Virus record (IMG/VR): IMGVR_UViG_2703718784_000020
Length of the DNA: 36,587 nucleotides
From: a virus
Taxonomy: Duplodnaviria; Heunggongvirae; Uroviricota; Caudoviricetes
Reading direction: 5' to 3' (one strand)
Shown: positions 2,016 to 35,580 of the stretch, one piece after another
How the letters are laid out: every line of letters begins with the position of its first letter
How positions within the stretch are numbered: the stretch's first letter is position 1
The notes under the pieces: model-generated
Database searches by the model: none
What the model was told of the DNA's origin: nothing
What the model saw: the letters and a program-made list of their open reading frames with translations, nothing else
Position numbers and translations under genes: made by a program

Positions 2016-2156
2016 TTACTGCTTACACTGTAAGAACGCCGCAAACTCCGCTCCCCAGAAGCTCATCCGTATTTCACACAGCGAACCGTGCAGCATCCAG
2101 ATGATGAGGATTACCGTCACGCAGAACGTGATGGCCGTAAGCGATTTTTGCGACAT
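2016..2156 (-). CDS. Hok/Gef family type I toxin (small membrane-active peptide)
   Basis: 46-codon ORF below the ORF-track size cutoff: MSQKSLTAITFCVTVILIIWMLHGSLCEIRMSFWGAEFAAFLQCKQ; hydrophobic N-terminal helix followed by the family signature SLCEIR and a C-terminal AAFL-C motif as in HokA; RBS AAAGGAG 8 nt upstream of the ATG at 2156. Confidence 0.7.
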   Translation of the reverse strand: MSQKSLTAITFCVTVILIIWMLHGSLCEIRMSFWGAEFAAFLQCKQ

Positions 2157-3915: not shown

Positions 3916-5100
3916 ATGAGTGAAACTCGTTTTCATGGTGCCCGTGTTACGGAAAATACCGACCTGGTAACAGCGATTAACGATGTTGATTCCAGCGTTA
4001 TCGGTATCGTGGCAACGGCGGATGATGCGGACGCGAAGCTGTTCCCGCTGAACAAGCCTACACTGCTGACCCGCGTCAATGACGTGCTGGGAAAATGCGG
4101 GACAACGGGGACGCTTTATCGTGCGCTTAAGGCCATCGCAGACCAGGTGAGCACAAAGGTGATCGTCGTTCGCGTGGCTGAACACAAAGAAGAAGACGGA
4201 AAGACGCAGGATCAACTGGTTATCGGTGGTTCTGAGGATGACGGCAGCTATACGGGGATGTATGCGCTGCTTGTTGCAGAGCAGGATGAAAGCATCGGAT
4301 ACCGTCCGCGTATTCTGGCCGCGCCGGAGCTGGACACGGAGGCTGTAACAAAATCCCTGTGCGTGATTGCAGGTAAACTGCGCGCGTTTGTGTATGCCTC
4401 ATGTCACGGCTGTAACACGATGGCTGAGGCGATTACCTACCGCCAGAAATTCAACGAACGTGAGGTGATGCTCTTATGGCCGGACTTCATCGCCTACAAC
4501 CCGAAAAGTGGCAAAAACGAAACGTTCCCCGCGCCTGCCTATGCGTGCGGCCTTCGTGCGTACATTGACCATGAGCAGGGATGGCACAAATCACTGTCCA
4601 ACGTTCCGGTTAAAAATGTGCTGGGGATGTCGAGGCATGTGTTCTGGTCGTTGCAGGCCGAAGACAGCGATGCCAACAGCCTCAACAACAAAGAAATCAC
4701 GACCATTATTCGTCGCAATGGGTTCCGCTTCTGGGGCAACCGCACACCGGAAACGAACGCCTACATCTTTGAGGTGTATACCCGAACCGCACAGGTGCTG
4801 GCTGATTCAATTGCGGAAGCGCAGTTTGAAACCATCGACAGTCCACTGACGCCTGCGAACGTGAAGGATGTTATCAGTGCCATCAGGGCAAAACTGGATT
4901 CACTGGTTACTGCCGGGAAACTGATTGGCGCGGAGTGCTGGTATGACGTGGTGGATAACAGCACCACGGATTTACGTCAGGGGCGTGTGCGTATTCGCTA
5001 CAAATATACGCCCGTTCCGCCACTGGAAGACATGGAGCTTTACCAGACGTTTACTGATGAATACTTTGAACCCGCATTTGCGGTGCTGGGAGGTGCCTGA
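3916..5100 (+). CDS. FI: Contractile tail sheath protein gpFI
   Basis: 394-aa product, size and sequence character of P2 FI sheath protein; stop overlaps the FII start (TGATG). Confidence 0.9.
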   Translation: MSETRFHGARVTENTDLVTAINDVDSSVIGIVATADDADAKLFPLNKPTLLTRVNDVLGKCGTTGTLYRALKAIADQVSTKVIVVRVAEHKEEDGKTQDQLVIGGSEDDGSYTGMYALLVAEQDESIGYRPRILAAPELDTEAVTKSLCVIAGKLRAFVYASCHGCNTMAEAITYRQKFNEREVMLLWPDFIAYNPKSGKNETFPAPAYACGLRAYIDHEQGWHKSLSNVPVKNVLGMSRHVFWSLQAEDSDANSLNNKEITTIIRRNGFRFWGNRTPETNAYIFEVYTRTAQVLADSIAEAQFETIDSPLTPANVKDVISAIRAKLDSLVTAGKLIGAECWYDVVDNSTTDLRQGRVRIRYKYTPVPPLEDMELYQTFTDEYFEPAFAVLGGA

Positions 5101-5612
5101 TGGCTGTGCCAAAACATCTTCGCTTTTTTACGCTGTTTGTGGATGGTGAAAACGAAGTGGGTAAGGTGACGTCCGTCACTCTGCCCAAACTGACGCGCAA
5201 AACCGACAGCTACCGGGGTGGTGGCATGATGGGGGCGGTAAGTATTGATCTCGGTCTGGACGACTCTGCGCTTGATGCGAGCTTTGTCATGGGGGGCGCA
5301 GTTCGTGAGCTGTTCCTTAAGTATGGCGGCACGATTGACGGCACGCTGCTGCGTTTTGCGGGTGAATACTACACCGATGCAGAAAGCGACCTGTATGAAG
5401 TCGAAATGCGCGGACGTGTGACGGAAATTGATATGGGGGAAGCCAAACAGGGCGAAGCCACATCACACACTTACGCCATTAAAAACACCTATTACAAGCT
5501 GAGTGTTAACGATCGCCCGTTGTGGGAGATTGACCTGCTGAACTTCATTTACCGGAAGGACGGCAAGGACATTGTGCCCGATCGCATCCGTTCCGCGCTC
5601 GGGCTTGGCTGA
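5100..5612 (+). CDS. FII: Tail tube protein gpFII
   Basis: 170-aa product MAVPKHLRFFTLFVDGENEVGKVTSVTLPKL... immediately after the sheath gene, as in P2. Confidence 0.9.
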   Translation: MAVPKHLRFFTLFVDGENEVGKVTSVTLPKLTRKTDSYRGGGMMGAVSIDLGLDDSALDASFVMGGAVRELFLKYGGTIDGTLLRFAGEYYTDAESDLYEVEMRGRVTEIDMGEAKQGEATSHTYAIKNTYYKLSVNDRPLWEIDLLNFIYRKDGKDIVPDRIRSALGLG

Positions 5613-5666
5613 TAAGTAATATGCAGGCGGCGCAGTGCGTCGCCTCTGACTGAAAGGAGTTTCCTG

Positions 5667-6032
5667 ATGAAAGAGACGAAAAACATCGATACCGAAAACA
5701 CGGTCGTTGCTGACACTGTGAAAGAAACCAGTGAGCGTGGCGTAAAACTTACCCAACCAATTGAGCGAGGCGGCGAAAAAATCACGTATGTGGAGATCAC
5801 CGGGGCTATTGAGCAGGCTGGATCTCTGCGAGATTTGTCGCTGTCTGATGTGCTGAATCTGAAAGTGGAATCCATGTTTACGCTGCTGTCACGCGTGACA
5901 TCACCGCGACTGGATGAAGTGACGATCAAAAAAATGGCATCCCGTGACTTTATTCAGTTATGTGTGGTTGCCGTAAATTTTTTGAGCGGTGCGGACTCTG
6001 GCGGGAAGAACGAACAGGCGACGGAAGCCTGA
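5667..6032 (+). CDS. E: Tail assembly chaperone gpE
   Basis: 121-aa ORF in the E position between FII and the tape measure gene; contains the slippery run T-TTT-TTG at 5978-5984. Confidence 0.8.
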   Translation: MKETKNIDTENTVVADTVKETSERGVKLTQPIERGGEKITYVEITGAIEQAGSLRDLSLSDVLNLKVESMFTLLSRVTSPRLDEVTIKKMASRDFIQLCVVAVNFLSGADSGGKNEQATEA

Positions 6033-6196
6033 TCACGGTTGTGTGCTTTGAGCACATAGAAGACTTTGTGGCGGATATTGCCGCCATTTTTAACTGGTCG
6101 CCCGCCGAAATCTTCATGATGACGCCCGGCGAAGTGGTTAGCTGGCGTGAGCGGGCGGCACTTCGCAGCGGGAATGCAGACAATGAAGACTCTTGA
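5667..6196 (+). CDS. gpE+E' fusion produced by programmed -1 ribosomal frameshift
   Basis: Slippery heptamer TTTTTTG at 5978-5984; the -1 frame stays open to 6196 (ORF track 5960-6196) and ends just inside the start of T, the arrangement known for P2 E/E' and lambda G/GT. Confidence 0.65.
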
Positions 6197-8990
6197 TATC
6201 CGGGTCGCTTTCAGCGCCGTTGACAGGCTGACCCGGCCTGCCGAAAACGCCCGCCGCCTGATAGGGCAGTTTGGTGACTCCATCCAGCGAACGCAGGGGG
6301 CGATCAAAAATCTCGAGCGTCAGGCGCGATCATTTGAGCGCGCCCGCGACGCTGTCAGTAAAGCGGATGCGGGTATCGTGAAAGCACGACGCCAGCTTAA
6401 CGCCCTTAATCAGTTACAACGCACGGGTACAGTGCTCAGCGAAAAACAACAAAAGCTGATGCAGCAGTTAAGCACCCGGCTTGAACGCCTGAATGAATCG
6501 CGCACACGGGAAATTCAGAAAATGCGGGAGCTTGGTGGAGAGCTGAAACGCCACGGCATTTCCCTGACAGGCAGCGATAACACCATCCAGCAGGCCATCA
6601 GACGCACCGAACAGTACAACAACCAGCTTGAACGCGAACGGCAGGCGCTTGCGCGTGTAACGCGGGCGCGTGAGCGGTATTCGCGCGCGCAGGAAACCGC
6701 GGGAAAACTGAAAACAGGTGGTGCGCTGGCAACTGGTACGGCAGCGGCTGGCGGCTATGCTGCCGGGCGTTTTTTGCAGCCTGCGATCGGGTTCGGGAAA
6801 GAGATGTCCCGCGTTCAGGCGCTGACGCGAATCGACCAGAACAGCCCACAGTTTAAGGCGCTGCGTGAGCAGGCGTTAAAACTTGGCTCTGAAACGCAGT
6901 TCACCGCTGGAGATGCCGCCAGTGGACAGGCATTTCTTGCAATGGCTGGCTTCACACCACAGGCCATTCAGGCTGCGCTTCCCGGTGTGCTGAGCATGGC
7001 AACGGCTGGCGGTATGGATCTCGGCGAGACGGCGGATATTGGCTCAAACATCCTGACGCAGTTCGGCCTTTCTGCCGACCAGATGGACCGGGTCGGTGAC
7101 ACGCTCACCGCAGCGTTTACCCGTACCAACACTGACCTTCGCGCACTGGGCGAAACCATGAAATATGCAGGTCCGGTGGCGGGCAAGCTGGGAATATCGC
7201 TGGAGCAGGCCGCAGCGATGGCGGGCGTGCTGGCGAATATGGGGATCAGGGGAAGTGATGCCGGGACGGCAATGCGTGCCAGCCTGGCTCGTCTGGCATC
7301 ACCGCCAAAGGCGGCAGCAGAGGCGCTGAAAGAGCTTGGTGTGGCAGTCTCTGACGCGAACGGCAAAATGCGCCCGATGGAGGATGTGCTGGCCGACCTT
7401 TATAAAGCCACCCGCAAATACGGGGAAGTTGACCGGGTATCGTTCTTTAAGGACATTGCCGGAGAAGAGGCTTTCACATCGTTTATGGCGCTCGTTGATG
7501 CAGCGGGTGACGGTTCCTTACCTAAACTGAGAAAAGAACTTGAAGGCGCGCGCGGTGAGGCTGAACGCACAGCAAAGGTTATGGCCAACAACCTTGACGG
7601 CGATCTGAAATCACTCGGCAGTGCATGGGAAGGGTTGCGCATCCGCATTGCAGATCTGATTGACGGTCCGCTGCGTTCTGTCACGCAGTGGCTCACACGG
7701 GTGGTATCAAGGGTGACGGCGCTGGCGCAGGCCCATCCGACACTGACGCGCCAGCTACTGATAGCAGGCGGTGCGTTGCTGGCAATGACTGCAACGGTTG
7801 GCTCGTTGTCGCTGGCTATTGGTGTGCTTGCTGGCCCGCTGGCAAAACTGCGTCTTGGTTTTTCTCTCCTGACCGGATCAATGAATGCTGTCAGGGTCCT
7901 GCCAGCACTATGGGGAATGGTGACGGGTTCCGTTTCTTTGCTGGGAGGTGCTATCGGGGCGCTGTTCAGTCCGGTTGGTCTTATCGTGGCTGCGCTTGCC
8001 GGAGCTGCCGTTCTTATCTGGAAATACTGGGATCCCATCAGGGCATTTTTTGCCGGGGTGTTCAGCGGGATTATGGAAAGGCTGATCCCGTTGCGCGAAA
8101 CCTTTGAACAGTTTGGTCCTGTTTTTGACGCAATCGGAAGCGGGATCAGCCAGGTGTTTAACTGGTTTAAATCGCTGCTGTCACCGATGGAGTCCAGCAA
8201 GGAAACGCTGGATAAATGTACCAGTGCTGGCGAGATATTCGGTAACGTTCTTGGTGGCGCGTTACAGCTTGTTCTGACGCCTGCAAAAATGTTGCTGGAT
8301 ACGCTGGCGTGGATACTTGAAAAACTCGGTGTTCTTCCGGATGAAGCGGAAAGGGCGAGAAAGAAAATCGAAGACGCACAGCGTGCGGCCATTCTTCAGG
8401 ACAAGGTTGCCTTGCTTCAGGGGGACCTGGGGAAAATCAATCCGCCGAAGCCTGTGGAAAATGGCAATGGCACCGGAGGTGATAAACCCAAAGACAATAA
8501 ACCGCTCACAGACAGCAATACCGGTACACTGCGCAGACTCAGCAAAATTGCTGATAACACAGGTAAGCTGGTTGATGAGACGAAAAAACGCATTGGCCCC
8601 GGCGATATTGTTTTTAAGAACCTGCCCCGCGCACTTGCTGTTCGTGGGGAGTGGCAGGAGCGGAAGATTGCGCAGGCCAGTAAGCCTGCCCCCGCAATTA
8701 ATATCACACCCGTGGTCCCGGCTCCGCTGCCTCCGGCGCTGGTCCCTGTTGTTGCGGCCAACTCCCGCCCGGTGGCGGAGGCCATACGATCGCCAGTGGC
8801 ATCAGTTCCTGCAACTTCCCGTAACCGGGAGCCTGTTGCCTCCGGATTTGGTGGTGAAATTCATGTCCATCTGCATAACGTTGTTACGCAGAATCCCCGC
8901 GAACTGGCGAAACTGGTCGGTGAAATGGTCAGGGCAGAAATAGAACGGCGCGCCCGTGCCGGGCGTGGCAGTTTTTACGATAAAGATTGA
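6183..8990 (+). CDS. T: Tail tape measure protein gpT
   Basis: About 935 aa, alanine/glycine rich with a central hydrophobic segment and coiled-coil N-terminal region; ORF track start is 6147, the ATG at 6183 has better spacing to GGGA and overlaps the E' stop. Confidence 0.85.
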   Translation: MKTLDIRVAFSAVDRLTRPAENARRLIGQFGDSIQRTQGAIKNLERQARSFERARDAVSKADAGIVKARRQLNALNQLQRTGTVLSEKQQKLMQQLSTRLERLNESRTREIQKMRELGGELKRHGISLTGSDNTIQQAIRRTEQYNNQLERERQALARVTRARERYSRAQETAGKLKTGGALATGTAAAGGYAAGRFLQPAIGFGKEMSRVQALTRIDQNSPQFKALREQALKLGSETQFTAGDAASGQAFLAMAGFTPQAIQAALPGVLSMATAGGMDLGETADIGSNILTQFGLSADQMDRVGDTLTAAFTRTNTDLRALGETMKYAGPVAGKLGISLEQAAAMAGVLANMGIRGSDAGTAMRASLARLASPPKAAAEALKELGVAVSDANGKMRPMEDVLADLYKATRKYGEVDRVSFFKDIAGEEAFTSFMALVDAAGDGSLPKLRKELEGARGEAERTAKVMANNLDGDLKSLGSAWEGLRIRIADLIDGPLRSVTQWLTRVVSRVTALAQAHPTLTRQLLIAGGALLAMTATVGSLSLAIGVLAGPLAKLRLGFSLLTGSMNAVRVLPALWGMVTGSVSLLGGAIGALFSPVGLIVAALAGAAVLIWKYWDPIRAFFAGVFSGIMERLIPLRETFEQFGPVFDAIGSGISQVFNWFKSLLSPMESSKETLDKCTSAGEIFGNVLGGALQLVLTPAKMLLDTLAWILEKLGVLPDEAERARKKIEDAQRAAILQDKVALLQGDLGKINPPKPVENGNGTGGDKPKDNKPLTDSNTGTLRRLSKIADNTGKLVDETKKRIGPGDIVFKNLPRALAVRGEWQERKIAQASKPAPAINITPVVPAPLPPALVPVVAANSRPVAEAIRSPVASVPATSRNREPVASGFGGEIHVHLHNVVTQNPRELAKLVGEMVRAEIERRARAGRGSFYDKD

Positions 8991-8996
8991 GGAGTC

Positions 8997-9491
8997 ATGG
9001 CCATGATGATGATCTACGGCATGTTTGTTTTTGAGCTGCGCACGTTGCCGCATCAGCAGTTACAGCAAAGCAAAAACTGGCGGCATGTGAAAAATGAACG
9101 CGTTAACCGTTCAGCAAGCTGGCAGTATATCGGTGCAGGCGATGATCGCATCGTTCTTTCTGGTGTGCTTTATCCTGAAATTACAGGTGGCGAAGTGTCG
9201 CTGTCGCTGCTGACCACGCAGGCGTATACAGGACGCCCCTGGCCTCTTATTGATGGCGTCGGGCAGATTTACGGCATGTATGTCTTGACCGAAACGAATA
9301 CGACCCGTTCCGAGTTTGATCGCTACGGTAAGGCGAAAAAGATAGAATTTTCACTGACCCTTGAACGCTGTGATGAGGATTTGCGGGAGCGCCTGCAATC
9401 CTCATCGTTAAGCGATATGCTGTCCGGCTTCAAAGATAAGGTGACATCATCTCTTAACAGCGCGGCCAGTTCAGTTAAAGGGCTGCTCTGA
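8997..9491 (+). CDS. U: Tail protein gpU
   Basis: 164-aa product MAMMMIYGMFVFELRTLPHQQLQQ... resembling the P2 U N-terminus; RBS GAGGAG. Confidence 0.85.
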   Translation: MAMMMIYGMFVFELRTLPHQQLQQSKNWRHVKNERVNRSASWQYIGAGDDRIVLSGVLYPEITGGEVSLSLLTTQAYTGRPWPLIDGVGQIYGMYVLTETNTTRSEFDRYGKAKKIEFSLTLERCDEDLRERLQSSSLSDMLSGFKDKVTSSLNSAASSVKGLL

Positions 9492-9500
9492 TTTTACATT

Positions 9501-9550
9501 GCCGCCAATACCCTCATATTGGGTAATGGGCGGCTTGTTGTTATATAATA
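9501..9550 (+). terminator. Imperfect long hairpin followed by T-rich run after U
   Basis: GCCGCCAATACCC...GGGTAATGGGCGGC stem then TTGTTGTTATATAATAT; sits between the convergent genes U and the glycosyltransferase. Confidence 0.4.
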
Positions 9551-9587
9551 TATCGTAGGTCCTAATAAAACTGTTGAGGTTTCTACG

Positions 9588-10826
9588 TTATAAAGAATGG
9601 CTACTTTCTAATTCTGGGTTTCTGGATCTATTTTTACAACCTAAATCCGAGTGGTAATCCGGTATATCGTTTGTCAAATCTTGTTTGATAGCATTAATTA
9701 AGAGCATTATGTCGAATTTATGCATATCGTCGCCCCCTTCAGACCTTAGATGTTCGGATGTGGTGAGTTGAGTCGCTAATTTGCTGTTTGGCCCCCATAC
9801 AATATTATTTTCGAATTTTCCTTCATGCATTCTGTTATTATATATACAGTATTGTCTAATGTTTAATGCACTGGCTAAATGTACAATGGCTGTATCTACA
9901 GTTATAACAAAATCAGCATGGCGAACCAATGCAAATGAACATCCGGCATCAGAAAATGGAGATAGAGACACATTATCCAATCCATTGTGATTAATCTGTT
10001 TTCCCATATTAAAAACTATTGTGTGATATCCCTTAAGGTTATTGAGGTAAGCTAGTACTTTGTTTATCTGTTCATCAGATAAGGTTCTGCTATTCTGAGA
10101 GCCATAAGGGTTAAATATAACTAATTTTTTGTTTTTCTTCCTGAATTCATTTGCAACAATATTTGCTGGTTCATATATTTTGTTGTCAAAATTAAGCGCT
10201 GCAGCATAATTATTATTTTTTATCTTTAGTAAAGATAAAACTTTTTTCATTCTTTCAGATGTGTGAATGGAACGATTATCGATTATATTTGTATCAAAAA
10301 TAGTTACGGCAGGATGATTAAAACAGATAGAGTGTTTAGGTCTAAGTAAATGTAGTGTTTGCAATCTGGTTATCGCTGTGTTATCAAAATTTGAGAAGTC
10401 AACAACAAGATCTACATTCAGTTTTTTTATCTTTGCTTTTAGTTCGTTAAATTTATTTTTCTCGTAAGATATAAAGGCATCCACGCCAACAATATCAGTA
10501 AAGAGGAATGATACTCTTGAAGGTGCTATCACATATACCACCATACCGGATTTTTGAAGTTGTTTAATAAACCCTGAGGTAACGATGCCGTCACCAATGG
10601 CTTGCATGTGCATGAAAATGCACACTGTTTTATAACTATCCGGCTGTAATGATGTTTTCCTTCTGTATCGCATTTTTAGAAATGCCAGTCTGGCCTTCGT
10701 CTTTATCTTTTTTGTTTTAATATTTCGCTGTCTGTTAAGCTGTTTTAATGATGAAATAACATTCATAATGGTACCCTGAAATTCCAAATCACACATGTCA
10801 TCCGAAATGAGCAGGGTACTATACAA
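9588..10826 (-). CDS. Glycosyltransferase family 9 (ADP-heptose:LPS heptosyltransferase-like) cargo gene at the Z/fun position
   Basis: Visibly AT-rich ORF; N-terminal fold motif CIFMHMQAIGDGIV and C-terminal motif FVITVDTAIVHLASALNIRQYCIY...WGP resemble GT9 signatures; the ORF-track start is a TTG, the first ATG in frame is at 10766. Confidence 0.65.
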   Translation of the reverse strand: MYSTLLISDDMCDLEFQGTIMNVISSLKQLNRQRNIKTKKIKTKARLAFLKMRYRRKTSLQPDSYKTVCIFMHMQAIGDGIVTSGFIKQLQKSGMVVYVIAPSRVSFLFTDIVGVDAFISYEKNKFNELKAKIKKLNVDLVVDFSNFDNTAITRLQTLHLLRPKHSICFNHPAVTIFDTNIIDNRSIHTSERMKKVLSLLKIKNNNYAAALNFDNKIYEPANIVANEFRKKNKKLVIFNPYGSQNSRTLSDEQINKVLAYLNNLKGYHTIVFNMGKQINHNGLDNVSLSPFSDAGCSFALVRHADFVITVDTAIVHLASALNIRQYCIYNNRMHEGKFENNIVWGPNSKLATQLTTSEHLRSEGGDDMHKFDIMLLINAIKQDLTNDIPDYHSDLGCKNRSRNPELESSHSL

Positions 10827-10860
10827 AAAACTGGACTACAATGGTTTGAAATGAAAGCCT

Positions 10861-11460
10861 TTATGCTTGTTTACTCCTTGATTCCACTGGGGAAGCTGGC
10901 CACTCAATATCCGGTGCTCTTGATGTATCAACACGGTTCAGCAGCACTCGATACTTCTTCCATGCCACCAGTAACGATGTTTCTTCCTCTGTTGCAATAT
11001 TCAAATCTACGGCATCTTGAAGTGGCGAAATATGCTCACTGGCTACCTGCATGAGGCTGTTTTTTGTTTCTTCCGCCTCCCGTATCCGGAACACTTTTTC
11101 TGCTTCTGCATCTTTCACCCACGTTGTGCCGTTCCACTTCCGAAACTCCCCTTCCGGGGATAACCAAGTGACATTTTCCGGTAATGAGCCGAGTTCAGAA
11201 ATAAATAACGCGTCCCCTGATGCCACGTCATAAACTGTTTTACCCCGATGGTCTTCAACAAGATGCCACGATGCCTCATCACTGTTGAAAATAGCCACGA
11301 AGCCAGCTGGAATATCTGGCGGAGCAATATCAGTACTATTTGCAGGTAGACCTGTATGAGGTGGAATGTATGCATCACCTTCACCAATAAATTCATTGGT
11401 TCCGACCAGCAGATTATAAATTTTTATGGTTCGTGGTTGTTCACTCATTCTGAATGCCAT
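10861..11460 (-). CDS. G: Tail fiber assembly protein gpG
   Basis: 199-aa product directly downstream of the tail fiber gene with TAATG stop-start overlap. Confidence 0.8.
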
Positions 11461-13439
11461 TATGCAAGCCTCACAATATAGTTAAATGCGATGTTTTTTA
11501 CGGTGTTTTCCGCGTTGCCATAAGCGGCAATGGTAATGGTGTGTGTGTGCGAACCAATAGCGAGCGTATGTGTATGCGCACCTATTGCTACTGTGTGAGT
11601 ATGAGCTCCTGCGCTTAATACGCGATTACTTGCTGTCTTGCTTGTGTTAGTTGCATGCATTCCACCACCGGTACCGGGAGTTTCTGCGTATGCTGAAGTA
11701 TTGTTGTAAGCAAAGTTGTGTGTATGTGCTCCGGTGTTATTTGTGGATTTAGTTCCGTAATCAAACGACGATGTGGTTTTCGTCCCCAAATTCGTACTGG
11801 ATGCGCTGGCGCTGTGGGTGTGCGATTTAATGCCGTCCTGTTCCTGAGACAATACGGCTCGACCACTGGCAGGTTTGCCCTTAATCGTCCAGCCACGCAT
11901 ATCAGGGATCACGCCTGACGGATAAGCGGCTGCAAGTTTCGGGTATGCAGATTTGTCAAAAGTCTGCCCCTGCATCAGGGCATAACCAGACGGAACGGTA
12001 TCTGATGGCCAAGGGATCGGTGCGCCAACCGGATAAAGTTCATGAGGCGAAATATACAGCGAATAAACAGAACCGTCCGTTAATCCTTCCGGCTTATTAG
12101 CAGAATATGCTGGTGAAGTATGAATCGTTACGCTGGCGTTACTGGTATAATCCCACTGAATATTAACACCTGTGGCGTAATTACCTATTTTAACATAAAC
12201 ATCATAGGTATCACCGGATGTATTCACCCATGCAAAATTAGTAAATCCAACCGATGTCCGTCGCCATAACGCACCAGTAAGACCTTTTGGATTTCCATTT
12301 CCCGCACGAAGAACAAGTTCAGATATACCTGCCTGTTGAGGTGACTCCACGTTAAATCCCGCGCCACCAATCAACGTAATTGAAACAACAGAACTCGCCT
12401 GTGGCATGGTTACCGTTGCTAATTTGAACCAACCAGCACCACCGCTGAATGACATTGTTGTTGAGTTAAGCGTACCAATATCTTTCGGCGTCAGTGTTAT
12501 ATCCGCTGAAAGCGCCTTACCATTCACCTTACGGGCAGAAGGTACCCGACCATTCGCATTGTCATTAGCTGCTTTCACTGCTTTCGGTGTTGCGGCCAGC
12601 GTTTCTGAATCGCTGTTGGTGGCGCTACTGAGCTGGACTATTCCTTTTCGTGCCGTCGTGGCGTCCTGAGCGGTATATTTCCCGTTAGCAAGGTCATAGG
12701 CTGCCTTTACCGCCTTTGGTGTTGCCGCCAGCGTTTCTGAATCGCTGTTGGTGGCGCTACTGAGCTGGACAAGTCCTTTCCGCGCTGTAGTGGCGTCCTG
12801 TGCGGTATATTTCCCGTTAGCAAGGTCATAGGCTGCCTTGACCGCTTTCGGCGTTGCGGCCAGTGCTTCAGACGTGCTGTTGGTGGCGCTACTGAGTTGA
12901 ACAAAGCCTTTTGCGGTCAGCGAGGCGTCCGGGTGACGTCGTGACTGTTCATGTTCTTTCAGTTTGTCATTCACGTAATCCACTGTGGCCATAACCATGG
13001 TGTTATCCACGGTAAGCGCCACGGTGGCAGTGCTGGATACGGTCAGAATGGTGCGAAATGTTTGTGCACGTCCGGATCCTTCGGCAACGGTTGGCTTGTA
13101 ACTTTCCGCAGTATTGCCCACCGCGATCAAATCGCCGTGCTCATCAAATACACCAATTTCCCGGATCCAGAATCCGCCCGTTTCAGGAGGAATAACCAGC
13201 TCCGCAATAATGCGGTTCTGATGTGTTGCGTCCAGGATGACGCGATTAACAGTATGTCGCCACACCTCATGCACCAGACGGGTCTGCTTACTGTCTGGTG
13301 TGGGCAACGTGCCGCCACCGTCGCCCACGGCCATGTGAGTCAGGCGGACAGGATTACCATCTGGCGCGGCTGCCTGAGCTAATTTTTTGGCACCAGTATC
13401 AGTGATAATGGTTTTAAATTTTCGTGTTGTGGTACTCAT
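11460..13439 (-). CDS. H: Tail fiber protein gpH
   Basis: 659-aa product with a conserved P2 H-like N-terminus ([24 protein letters not shown]...), internal tandem repeats, and a histidine/threonine-rich C-terminal receptor-binding region. Confidence 0.85.
12570..12935. repeat. Tandem 132-bp repeat (about 2.7 copies) inside the tail fiber gene
   Basis: Protein repeat KG(F/L/I)[41 protein letters not shown] occurs three times; DNA copies begin near 12581, 12714 and 12846. Confidence 0.6.
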
Positions 13440-26166: not shown

Positions 26167-26454
26167 ATTTCTGGCCATCTGACTGGTTATCTGTGCGGTT
26201 GGTACTGGCTGTGACAGGGGGTGTTCTGTCCTGGTTTGTGTCACTGATAACGCCTCATCATCAGCCCATGCAGCCAGTCGGTAAGCCTCTGCCGGATTCA
26301 TTTTCAGAAGTGCCAGCCCGGCCAGAAAAGCCACGCGTTGGCCGCTTTTGCGGGCTTCTGGTGTAAGGCTGTCCAGCCAGGCGCATGCTTCGCCTTCGTT
26401 CTTGACGGCGGCGGGCTTCAGATAGAAACTTATCCGTCTGGTTGGTGTCGTCAT
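26143..26454 (-). CDS. parR: ParR-like ribbon-helix-helix centromere-binding protein
   Basis: ORF track 26143-26583; from the ATG at 26454 the 103-aa product RRISFYLKP...LDSLTPEARKSGQRVAFLAGLALL...ALFP aligns by eye with plasmid R1 ParR (RRTIAFKLNP...LDSIPQGERSRLNRAALTAGLALY...SLFP); RBS GGAG 9 nt upstream. Confidence 0.7.
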   Translation of the reverse strand: MTTPTRRISFYLKPAAVKNEGEACAWLDSLTPEARKSGQRVAFLAGLALLKMNPAEAYRLAAWADDEALSVTQTRTEHPLSQPVPTAQITSQMARNIRALFPE

Positions 26455-26458
26455 TGGT

Positions 26459-27418
26459 TTACTCCTTGTCCATTGCGTACAGCCCATTAACCAGAGCAAA
26501 CTGTGGCACCCCGTCCGCGATGAAAGTCGCATTAACTCCGCAGGCTTCGCGGATAGCGGGTGCCACAATCTCCGCTCCTCCACCTACAACCATCACCCGC
26601 CCGTAACCCGAAAAACCCGCCAGCGCGCGGATCACGCGTTGTTTCAGTGTTTCTTCCTTTTCACGAATAACCGCCATCAGGCTGGCGTAATGTGCGTCAT
26701 TGTGGATGTGCTGGCGCAGCCAGGCTTCATCGTGGCGATGTTCGATAATGGTATTGGCGATGTGGTGACTGGTACGCATACCGTTAGTGGCCATCACCGA
26801 CAGTACGGCATCGGCCATCAGAGAAACGCCTACGTGTGGATCGCAAAATACCTGGCTGATACCTGCCAGCTGCCCCTGAACCTTTGCCACATCCAGCGTG
26901 GTTCCGCCTAAATCCACAATCAGCAGGGATTCAAACGGACTCATGTCAGCCAGTGCCTTAAAGCCAGCCGGAATGGATTCAGGCATAACCCGCACGTTAC
27001 GGATAGTGAATGCTTCGCCGTTCTGGTACTCCACCGGGCGCATAACGTTCGCTTTTTTGCGGTTGATGTTGGCCATGTCCGGCTGTGCGTTTGTGTCGAA
27101 ATACTCGCTCAGTGGCAGGGTGACAACCACATCCACTTCCTGTGGTGTGATGCCTGATTTGACCAGCGCGTGATGAATGGCAATTACATTCACATCGCTG
27201 TACTGGTATTGCGTGTCGGTCGTCTGGACAAAGCGATCGCTGACCGGATCAAAACCATAGCGCACGCCATCAAGCATGTAGTTCGCGGGCTGCGTGCCAC
27301 CGAACGGCGCAGACCATTCCGACTTGAAGCTGTTCGGGCTGATGGCGTTGCGGCGTTCGCCGTTCTCAGTCCATGCCAGCTTGATGTTGGTGGAGCCGTC
27401 GTCGATACAAATTTTCAT
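26459..27418 (-). CDS. parM: ParM/StbA-like actin-type segregation ATPase
   Basis: 319-aa product MKICIDDGSTNIKLAW...ISPNSF...YSDVNVIAIHHAL...VMPESIPAGF...SLLIVDLGGTTLDV...GVSL...MVVGGGAEI closely parallels my recollection of plasmid R1 ParM along its whole length. Confidence 0.85.
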   Translation of the reverse strand: MKICIDDGSTNIKLAWTENGERRNAISPNSFKSEWSAPFGGTQPANYMLDGVRYGFDPVSDRFVQTTDTQYQYSDVNVIAIHHALVKSGITPQEVDVVVTLPLSEYFDTNAQPDMANINRKKANVMRPVEYQNGEAFTIRNVRVMPESIPAGFKALADMSPFESLLIVDLGGTTLDVAKVQGQLAGISQVFCDPHVGVSLMADAVLSVMATNGMRTSHHIANTIIEHRHDEAWLRQHIHNDAHYASLMAVIREKEETLKQRVIRALAGFSGYGRVMVVGGGAEIVAPAIREACGVNATFIADGVPQFALVNGLYAMDKE

Positions 27419-31002: not shown

Positions 31003-31223
31003 CTTTGCTAGTAAGTTTTGAAAACTCACCATCCAGAGCTGCGAAACTGTGGGTGGCGAGACGTACGAGGTTCGCAGTACCGGCTAGCAAAGAACCCGGC
31101 CCGACCGAAGTCGGCCCCGTACGCCCCGCCATAATTCGTGTGCGAAAAAGACGTGGCAATACAGTACGCACAAAAAAACCGCTGGCGCGGTTGTGCGCTT
31201 TGCTAGTCAGCAGGCTGCGAAAC
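31003..31223. repeat. Composite repeated motifs in a noncoding island of the early operon
   Basis: CTTTGCTAGT at 31003 and 31198, inverted as GCTAGCAAAG at 31083; GCTGCGAAAC at 31038 and 31214, inverted as GTTCGCAG at 31070. Confidence 0.45.
31172..31192 (-). terminator. Rho-independent terminator inside the early operon
   Basis: On the minus strand: AACCGC-GCCA-GCGGTT hairpin followed by TTTTTTT. Confidence 0.45.
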
Positions 31224-31314
31224 CCGGCACCCGTTTTATGAAGTGCAGCGGAAATGTAACCTGACTGATTGCGGCATGGCAAGCGGTTTTTTTGTGTGTG
31301 CATGTTCTGGTTTC

Positions 31315-34552: not shown

Positions 34553-35203
34553 ATGGCCGTCAACTCAAACGGTTCAAACAATCGCGTTGCTGGGCGTGAT
34601 TTTCACGAAAAGAATATTCAGATAGAGCGATATGATGGTTCTCATACCGTCAATATCGCAATCCCTTCGAATAATGATGATGACGATCGCCCTTTGCTTA
34701 AGGCTCAGCGTAAGGAGCTAAATAGCTTGGTTGCTGCTATTGCAGAAGCTAGCAATACTGAAGCGTTTATTATTTGGCAAAAAGTACATGCGGAGATTGG
34801 TGTAGCTGGTATTGATGATATGACAGTAAATCAATATAAAACAGCGGAGAGTTTTCTGCATGCAATGCTTGAGCGATGTAAAGATCATGATGCCTGTAAG
34901 GCTCTTGTAAGTTTATTACTACGTAACAGTGAAGACTGTGGACTTCGACAAAAACTTCTGCGGTATTGCCATATCAATTTCGGTACAGGACGTTTAAACG
35001 ATCTTACTCGTTCTCAGTTACAGTCTGCATTGTCGTGGTTAGAGCAACAATCGGCATCAAGCCACACAGAGAGTTCGACCTTACCAGAAGTCCGACTTCG
35101 TGCTTCAGAATTAATCCGACTTTATCCAAAAGAAATAATATTCTTTATCTGCGTAGGGGTTTTGGTAGGCGGTGTCATTTCTAGGGCGTTTTTTAATTTG
35201 TAA
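34553..35203 (+). CDS. Tail-anchored membrane protein of unknown function (lysogeny-operon cargo)
   Basis: 216-aa ORF 15 bp after the repressor gene with RBS GGGAGG; single C-terminal hydrophobic helix IIFFICVGVLVGGVISRAFF; AT-rich. Confidence 0.55.
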   Translation: MAVNSNGSNNRVAGRDFHEKNIQIERYDGSHTVNIAIPSNNDDDDRPLLKAQRKELNSLVAAIAEASNTEAFIIWQKVHAEIGVAGIDDMTVNQYKTAESFLHAMLERCKDHDACKALVSLLLRNSEDCGLRQKLLRYCHINFGTGRLNDLTRSQLQSALSWLEQQSASSHTESSTLPEVRLRASELIRLYPKEIIFFICVGVLVGGVISRAFFNL

Positions 35204-35232
35204 TCTTACTTGAGCTAAATTGAGGTAATGAT

Positions 35233-35580
35233 ATGAAAGTAAAAAAGGTTCAACTATTAGTTACTTTTTTATCTATGTTTTCTTTTTCCGCCGTCGCAAT
35301 GCCTTTTAAAACTATTGAACGTGAGAGTTTCAATGGGGTATGGCCATTTAATACTGATGAGGTTCAATTACAGTGTCTTGATGGTAATCCTTATGTGATG
35401 AATTTTGACGATAATAAGTTATATGCACTTACAGGCTTGGCTCGAATAAAAGGTAAAACATTTGGTGGGTTACCGTTAGATAACAATAATCCATTTTGGC
35501 TAGATAATGATGCCGCCCCAGGGTTAAAAAAGAGTCTGGGGGATGTCACTAAGGCTGCATTTGATTTATGTGATAAGTAA
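35233..35580 (+). CDS. Small secreted/periplasmic protein of unknown function (lysogeny-operon cargo)
   Basis: 115-aa ORF with N-terminal signal peptide MKVKKVQLLVTFLSMFSFSAVA; visibly AT-rich; RBS GAGGTAA. Confidence 0.55.
   Translation: MKVKKVQLLVTFLSMFSFSAVAMPFKTIERESFNGVWPFNTDEVQLQCLDGNPYVMNFDDNKLYALTGLARIKGKTFGGLPLDNNNPFWLDNDAAPGLKKSLGDVTKAAFDLCDK

Follow-up and report, generated by a model that had tools for sequence, protein, structure and literature searches.

The window analysed here, a 36,587-nt stretch of DNA deposited as IMG/VR virus record IMGVR_UViG_2703718784_000020, comprises a segment of the Escherichia coli chromosome (pgsA and the genes for tRNA-Gly, tRNA-Cys and tRNA-Leu) and, beyond it, an entire P2-family prophage with the integrase at the far end. 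The prophage is a P88-like P2-family element of E. coli, and strain STEC2018-607 differs from the window at 10 of the 31,000 compared positions. Among the tail genes of this prophage, between a tail-fibre assembly (chaperone) gene, tfa, and a gene for a gpU-like tail protein, lies a gene predicted to encode a family 9 glycosyltransferase (GT9), which is the subject of this analysis (Table 1). The original prediction, made from the sequence alone, singled it out as a strongly AT-rich single gene between tail genes, and so it is: its GC content is 0.333, while the prophage stands at 0.537 and the neighbouring fibre genes at 0.457-0.50. The GT9 label is not new, as RefSeq already annotates the gene in this way.

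Table 1. Features of the GT9 gene and its surroundings, in window coordinates
Feature	Position	Strand	Description	Basis
GT9 glycosyltransferase coding sequence	9588..10766	-	392 aa, ATG start, TAA stop	open reading frame (ORF), RefSeq, Pfam, AlphaFold, Foldseek, conserved motifs
Codon of D59 (presumed catalytic Asp)	10590-10592	-	within the GT9 coding sequence	
Codon of D291	9894-9896	-	within the GT9 coding sequence	
In-frame upstream extension (TTG start) of the maximal ORF	10767..10826	-	probably untranslated leader, not coding	
Cassette-specific DNA	9498..10894	.	GT9 gene with its 5' leader and 3' hairpin region; final 11 tfa codons	
Hairpin	9501..9535	.	between the convergent gpU and GT9 genes	folding energy
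Tail-fibre assembly (chaperone) gene, tfa	10861..11460	-	directly upstream of the GT9 gene, co-directional	annotation
Tail-fibre gene H	11460..13439	-	P88/P2-like N-terminal part, Stf-like C-terminal tip	
gpU-like tail protein gene	8997..9491	+	closes the inverted FI-FII-E-T-U operon and converges with the GT9 gene	

The interval originally proposed for the gene, 9588-10826 on the minus strand, is an uninterrupted reading frame of 412 codons from a TTG, but represents only the maximal ORF. The true start is most likely the ATG at 10766, because RefSeq uses it for the same gene (WP_062851135.1, 'glycosyltransferase family 9 protein') and the N-termini of the homologues begin there; the sequence from this methionine (MNVISSLKQLNRQRNIKTKKIK...) is conserved across 30 aligned homologues that start at the same place. 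The PHROGs database lists the family as phrog_36326, 'function unknown', with a start that is 51 residues too short. With the base composition of the gene itself, 392 codons free of stops would arise by chance with a probability of about 3e-14. The first 45 residues of the protein are very basic, with 14 lysines and arginines versus one acidic residue.

Profile, predicted fold and conserved motifs indicate that the gene product is a family 9 glycosyltransferase. The Pfam profile Glyco_transf_9 (PF01075) matches residues 228-332 (412-aa ORF numbering) with 26.7 bits, above the gathering cut-off of 22 (E 4e-6), and a precomputed PF01075 match is present in many homologues; the family membership originally proposed is thus borne out by the profile, and the fold match agrees. 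The NCBIfam models for HepI (heptosyltransferase I) and RfaQ yielded about 22 bits each, far under their cut-offs of 185 and 467, so the protein is not an orthologue of these inner-core enzymes. Sequence-only searches of the PDB returned marginal matches, the best being to WaaC (E ~0.07), and no match to TibC. An AlphaFold2 model built from the family alignment (predicted local distance difference test, pLDDT, 89.8; predicted template-modelling score, pTM, 0.85) has a GT-B fold with two Rossmann domains, nearest to the solved GT9 structures. The ten best Foldseek matches in the PDB (E 6e-14 to 1e-10) include the Veillonella GT9 protein 3tov, E. coli WaaC in four crystal forms (6dfe, 2h1h, 2gt1, 2h1f) and WaaF (1psw), and in addition, at rank 4, a chain of the chloroplast NDH complex (9grx_1). 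Other GT-B families appear only from about 1e-6, that is, the GT9 structures score five to six orders of magnitude better.

Four elements are invariant in 31 family sequences: G58-D59, H168..R172, R227 and V290-D291-T292..H296. In the alignment to WaaC, G58-D59 corresponds to G12-D13 and V290-D291-T292...H296 to V260-D261-T262...H266, and the N- and C-terminal GT9 signatures read from the sequence in the original prediction are accordingly both in place. H168..R172 aligns with the H..ER motif of WaaC, and R227 with the phosphate-binding K192, the latter in a region of low identity. In WaaC, D13 is the catalytic Asp, and D261, T262 and H266 form the functionally important sugar-nucleotide motif.

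The closest relative of the protein in E. coli was sought by translating the four K-12 waa-locus GT9 genes and scoring them with a profile of the protein's family. WaaU gave a full-length match of 117.7 bits that includes the basic N-terminal helix, compared with 23.3, 15.0 and 9.4 bits for the inner-core enzymes WaaQ, WaaC and WaaF, respectively; by blastp, the prophage protein and WaaU are 23% identical over 334 aa (E 4e-16). By these scores, WaaU, the outer-core heptosyltransferase IV, is the E. coli enzyme closest to the protein. The GT9 branch that contains the protein is small: a search of 1.84 billion representative proteins with the family profile yielded 3,129 matches at E<=1e-3 and only 116 at E<=1e-30. 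A word-indexed search of 5.8 billion clusters found 34 family members, and the 90% identity cluster of the protein itself holds 536 sequences. The K-12 waaU gene has a GC content of 0.31, against 0.33 for the prophage gene, and that of every homologue is similarly low. WaaU adds heptose IV to the third outer-core glucose, and in K-12 this heptose is the attachment site of the O-antigen (PMC13293308).

The prophage protein resembles WaaU (RfaK) in its length class, in the GD and VDTxxVH motifs and in the basic N-terminal helix, which is absent from WaaC, WaaF and WaaQ; the difference is that WaaU is encoded in the waa locus and the protein described here in a prophage. With 23% identity, and with an R3 core that lacks the heptose IV step in the one host examined, the relationship to WaaU is that of a homologue rather than of an orthologue acting on O-6 of the third glucose (GlcIII) of the K-12 core. 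WaaC, WaaF and WaaQ share with it the GT-B fold (structures 2h1h, 6dfe and 1psw; Foldseek E 1e-12 to 1e-10, TM score ~0.7 normalized on the target), an equivalent of the catalytic Asp and the C-terminal D-T-x-x-x-H nucleotide-sugar motif. However, their sequence similarity to the prophage protein is limited to the C-terminal motif (9-23 bits), and the prophage protein has an Arg at the position aligned with Lys192 and the additional 45-aa basic N-terminal helix. WaaK, the N-acetylglucosamine (GlcNAc) transferase of R2 and Salmonella cores, was considered as a GT9 relative of WaaU with a GlcNAc donor and rejected by comparison: R2 WaaK shares 57% identity with R3 WaaD, is a relative of WaaG (GT4-like), and shows no similarity to WaaU or to the prophage GT9. 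Therefore, ADP-heptose stays the most economical donor.

Homologues that are 38-55% identical to the prophage protein are found in chromosomal gene clusters for the lipopolysaccharide (LPS) core. The 55% identical homologue is the last outer-core gene of a waa operon with the order waaL, waaQ, waaG, waaP, waaB-like, waaO-like, waaJ-like, GT9 homologue, waaA, coaD, which is 99-100% identical to a Serratia marcescens contig. Gilliamella species have four or five GT8 outer-core genes around the homologue, together with another WaaU-like paralogue next to it. The homologue of Vibrio plantisponsor lies inside the waa cluster, that of Orbus beside a GT2, a GT9 and two sulfatase-family genes, and that of a Citrobacter between asmA and the O-antigen cluster. 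Location in an LPS core cluster is a property of the chromosomal members in the Serratia-type operon, Gilliamella, Orbus and Vibrio, whereas the copy in the window is prophage cargo. The original suggestion that enzymes of this type act on the LPS core is strengthened by these comparisons, with the refinement that the nearest E. coli enzyme is WaaU and not WaaC, WaaF or WaaQ.

Prophage-borne homologues occupy a different but equally recurrent position, directly downstream of a tail-fibre or chaperone gene and co-directional with it, in at least three kinds of myovirus. Apart from the P2-family element, the copies in Providencia stuartii, P. alcalifaciens and Providencia sp. are in prophages with an E217-like baseplate, and one in P. 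rettgeri is in a prophage with a Mu-like baseplate, followed by a GT2 gene, dinI and an integrase gene. In one more phage copy, the preceding gene is portal-like, with a fibre-like domain at the C-terminus, and another P. rettgeri copy is a chromosomal orphan. In every host, the GC content of the homologue (0.26-0.41) is below that of its flanks. The pattern indicates that an LPS core enzyme has been repeatedly captured by temperate phages. Searches of deposited phage genomes by DNA and by protein found no close homologue, only two 23% identical matches in Campylobacter phages.

Two other features of the homologous loci were observed. A GT2 gene is paired with the GT9 homologue in the P. rettgeri prophage (locus L068, 7144-8118, minus strand) and on the Orbus chromosome (locus L003, 11134-12111, plus strand), which suggests that two sugars are added in succession in some carriers; in the E. 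coli cassette, the GT9 gene stands alone, without a GT2 partner. In Symbiopectobacterium purcellii, an insect or nematode symbiont, a 50% identical homologue (locus L013, 10001-11085) is surrounded by three copies of a 299-aa ORF, which are probably insertion sequence transposases; with a longest ORF of only 319 aa, this homologue may be decaying.

Within E. coli, the complete gene together with its flanks is present in 49 of 5,426 complete genomes (~1%), at 98.5-99.9% identity. In these genomes, it is always annotated as GT9 and always lies between a 'tail fiber assembly protein' and a 'phage tail protein'; a single copy (H36) is interrupted by an IS5-family element. One host strain that is nearly identical to the window was typed and has an R3 core operon without a WaaU-type gene; therefore, the activity encoded by the prophage would be new to that cell.

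The original prediction placed the gene at the Z/fun position of P2. The part of this claim that stands is the existence of a variable cargo slot directly 3' of the tail-fibre assembly gene; the part that does not is the identity of the locus, given the Tfa and gpU flanks, the co-directional orientation and the lack of similarity between the prophage GT9 protein and Fun(Z). In P2, the order is H, G, a terminator, fun(Z) in antisense, and then FI-FII-E-T-U-D. In the window, the tail operon FI-FII-E-E'-T-U (3916-9491, plus strand) is inverted relative to P2, with the rest of the late genes on the minus strand, whereas D and ogr retain the P2 orientation. P88 (Xuanwuvirus) is arranged likewise, so the inversion is a trait of the lineage and not a local rearrangement. 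Because the FI-to-U operon is inverted, the slot lies between converging tfa and gpU genes. In P88, the same slot contains a DNA invertase gene and an alternative fibre cassette, and in the Rac prophage of K-12, pinR comes after tfaR.

'Z/fun position' is therefore best read as a fair functional analogy. Both fun(Z) and the GT9 gene are single genes, non-essential and foreign-looking, that come directly after the gene for tail-fibre assembly in a member of the P2 family. However, fun(Z) lies in antisense between G and FI, whereas the GT9 gene is co-directional with tfa and flanked by gpU, and Fun(Z) blocks T5 via an unrelated mechanism. The invertases and invertible fibre cassettes (the P88 invertase, Rac pinR, Mu gin) share with the GT9 gene the slot immediately 3' of the tail-fibre assembly gene, but serve host-range switching rather than a change of the host surface.

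The borders of the cassette can be placed by comparison with relatives. Homology to P88 ends 6 nt past the gpU stop codon, and homology to Rac/Qin-type tfa (tfaR/tfaQ) ends at about 10895, within the last 11 codons of tfa, where the Tfa C-terminus is changed from ...DIEWPALP to another ending (16 residues). A 17-nt identity with the P. stuartii locus at the 3' end of tfa suggests that the conserved end of the chaperone gene might serve to anchor recombination. The Tfa that precedes the P. stuartii homologue is 45% identical to the window Tfa over the full length, and the fibre tips are 33% identical. The notion that fibre tip, chaperone and GT9 move as one unit was rejected, since the same tip/Tfa module is found in 3,221 genomes without the GT9 gene. 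The coupling of the GT9 gene to the receptor-binding module is thus positional, not obligatory.

The neighbouring proteins are of mixed descent. The gpU-like protein is 97% identical to P88 gpU and 46% to P2 U; residues 1-300 of H are 93% identical to P88 H, and the C-terminal part has about 90% DNA identity to stfR/stfQ. Apart from its C-terminal 65 aa, the Tfa belongs to the Rac/Qin/lambda type and not to that of P2 G, and its gene has about 90% DNA identity to tfaR/tfaQ. The DNA for fibre tip and chaperone together (10895-12100, minus strand) is about 90% identical to the stfR-tfaR and stfQ-tfaQ pairs that the cryptic lambdoid prophages Rac and Qin carry. The fibre thus combines a P2-type shaft with a lambdoid side-fibre tip, so the receptor of the prophage cannot be assumed to be that of P2.

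Scans for sigma-70 promoters and terminators in the window and in three Providencia loci gave counts no higher than in shuffled sequence and no full promoter upstream of the GT9 gene, and no predicted terminator was found between tfa and the GT9 gene. Inspection of six prophage copies by eye detected a -10-like hexamer (TATAAT or TATAGT) in each of them, 35-55 nt before the start of the gene. The gene may be expressed late, in the lysogen, or both. The hairpin between the convergent gpU and GT9 genes has folding energies of -21.3 (plus strand) and -20.3 (minus strand) kcal/mol (z -2.8 and -4.0, respectively), with a U-rich tail only on the plus strand, and is likely a two-way terminator.

In the 94-nt leader of the gene, GUACCCUG can pair with CAGGGUAC (10772-10820, minus strand), covering the sole Shine-Dalgarno-like AGGG before the ATG, with weak statistical support (z -2.1; 5 of 200 shuffled sequences were as stable). 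The 5' arm of this hairpin overlaps the TATAGT hexamer, so translation might differ between transcripts that read through and those that start locally. A full-length match to the Rfam small RNA family 'IS009' (187.7 bits, cut-off 117) falls wholly within the conserved part of tfa that encodes the C-terminus (10919-11117, minus strand), some 150 nt before the GT9 gene begins. Either this Rfam entry describes the conserved coding sequence of tfa, or an RNA made at this place could read into the GT9 gene.

Taken together, these observations lead us to propose, with a probability of roughly 0.6, that the gene encodes an active cytoplasmic WaaU-like GT9 enzyme that was captured from an LPS core cluster, adds a sugar to the outer core and functions as a lysogenic-conversion or adsorption-blocking cassette. 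In this scenario, a gene of a bacterial LPS core cluster would have become a cassette of one gene that temperate myoviruses carry where their tail-fibre operon ends. The basic N-terminal helix would hold the enzyme at the inner face of the cytoplasmic membrane. The donor would be ADP-heptose, which the E. coli host already makes, so that no other gene would be needed, and one heptose side branch would be added to an outer-core hexose of the nascent lipid A-core before export. The changed core epitope would then reduce the adsorption of core-dependent phages and possibly also alter recognition by the O-antigen ligase. P2 fibres, for example, require the K-12 core (PMC8594841), and O-antigen-modifying prophage enzymes are an established means of superinfection exclusion (PMC11436027).

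More tentatively, the gene could be a mobile single-gene cassette that spreads among unrelated temperate myoviruses via recombination in the 3' ends of chaperone genes, caps the outer core of the lysogen and blocks core-binding phages, possibly including its own carrier, and may shift O-antigen ligation; we consider this extended version possible but doubtful.

Several observations weigh against the proposed function. With only 23% identity to WaaU, donor and acceptor are not confidently transferable, and WaaU itself is annotated as 'putative'. The tip/Tfa module with about 90% DNA identity to stfR-tfaR/tfaQ occurs in 3,221 of the 5,426 complete E. coli genomes without the GT9 gene, and the fibre tip of the prophage is Stf-like, not P2-like, so that its own receptor is not inferable from that of P2. 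The PADLOC defence-system models matched 0 families at E<=10. Furthermore, the GT9 gene may be transcribed only with the late tail operon and not in the lysogen; expression during lysogeny is itself something we infer, because no convincing promoter of its own was found.

In an alternative that we regard as unlikely, the enzyme class and the LPS target are the same but the chemistry or the timing is not: the enzyme would transfer a different sugar, modify another glycolipid (an O-unit, the enterobacterial common antigen or a capsule primer), or be made late in the lytic cycle, for example, to render lysing cells and debris non-adsorbing for the progeny. The arrangement of the genes fits late expression, the GT9 gene being co-directional with H and tfa and separated from them by only 94 bp in which neither a terminator nor a strong promoter is predicted, although the -10-like hexamers in the six prophage copies leave room for a promoter of its own. 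A different acceptor or sugar would accord with the low identity to WaaU, with the homologue that adjoins an O-antigen cluster instead of a core cluster, and with the pairing of the P. rettgeri prophage copy with a GT2 gene; yet most chromosomal homologues are in core (waa-type) clusters. As far as we know, all characterised GT9 enzymes closest in fold, WaaC and WaaF, use ADP-heptose, which argues against a different donor.

Improbable, in our estimate, is the possibility that the gene is a functionless hitch-hiker, that is, a fragment of an LPS locus brought in by recombination in the variable fibre region, silent (e.g. repressed by H-NS on account of its AT-richness) and not under selection. 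Its rarity (49 of 5,426 genomes), its AT-richness, the lack of a clear promoter and the IS5-family insertion in the H36 copy would be expected of such a passenger, but the reading frame and every catalytic motif are intact, copies from diverse strains are 98.5-99.9% identical, the cluster of the protein holds 536 sequences, and the family has become fixed at one position in prophages of at least three unrelated backbones, from two families of bacteria, which is hard to explain without selection. We give even less credence to a protein glycosyltransferase that, like TibC or Aah, heptosylates the tail fibre of the phage or another virion or host protein. The prophage copies always adjoin tail-fibre and chaperone genes, GT9 includes protein heptosyltransferases, and TibC is among the fold matches. 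However, TibC (4rap) matches with E ~7e-6 and TM 0.42-0.45, compared with 1e-12 to 6e-14 and TM 0.6-0.7 for the LPS enzymes; the 38-55% identical homologues are regular parts of chromosomal LPS core operons that have no phage in the vicinity; WaaU is the closest enzyme in E. coli; and the same fibre/Tfa module works in thousands of prophages that lack the GT9 gene.

A known parallel to the proposed modification of the outer core is serotype conversion by Gtr and Oac systems (GtrABC of P22 and SfV, Oac of D3 and Sf6), likewise prophage cargo that alters the LPS and thereby phage adsorption (PMC11436027). Those systems, in contrast, act in the periplasm and on the O-antigen, by means of either an acetylase or a bactoprenol-linked pathway of three genes, whereas the gene described here encodes a single cytoplasmic enzyme of the GT-B/GT9 type, not GT2 or GT-C, that is predicted to act on the core. 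None of the gtrA flippase, gtrB bactoprenol glucosyltransferase and gtrC genes is annotated in the prophage. If the mobile-cassette version were correct, the protein would be the first prophage-borne enzyme in Enterobacterales known to us that remodels the LPS core rather than the O-antigen. A search of the literature on prophage-borne GT9 or heptosyltransferases, and of P2 hotspot papers for glycosyltransferases, found nothing relevant.

The LPS core is needed for adsorption, or to trigger injection, by a large number of coliphages, among them candidates for therapy and phages of the P2, P1 and T-even types. If the proposed function is correct, a mobile outer-core sugar gene would shift phage host range without a change in serotype or chromosomal core type, could also alter O-antigen attachment and the binding of core-directed antibodies, and would cause in silico core typing from the waa locus alone to mispredict the surface of carrier strains. 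The practical value is moderate, as the gene is rare (~1% of complete E. coli genomes) and the effect hypothetical.

Other regions of the prophage carry additional accessory elements. The early region contains a C4 antisense RNA (31049-31136, minus strand; 82.8 bits) adjoining an isrK Hfq-binding RNA (31172-31246, minus strand; 62.6 bits), a pair that is a P1/P7-style antisense immunity element inside a P2-family phage. The old/tin hotspot, which lies between replication gene A and the gene for the portal protein, holds a ParM plasmid-segregation gene and a partition/stability gene (26143-27418, minus strand); about a quarter of P2-like phages have a putative partition system at this hotspot (PMC9122126). 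At the tRNA-Leu end of the prophage, a gene for a Hok/Gef family toxin (2016-2156, minus strand) adjoins ogr, next to an AT-rich stretch (1001-2000), and P88 carries the same toxin gene at the same place. Finally, two small genes, for a 216-aa hypothetical protein and a DUF2511 protein, are located between the integrase and the helix-turn-helix repressor (34553-35580, plus strand); with a GC content of 0.37-0.42, this stretch may be a further cargo site.

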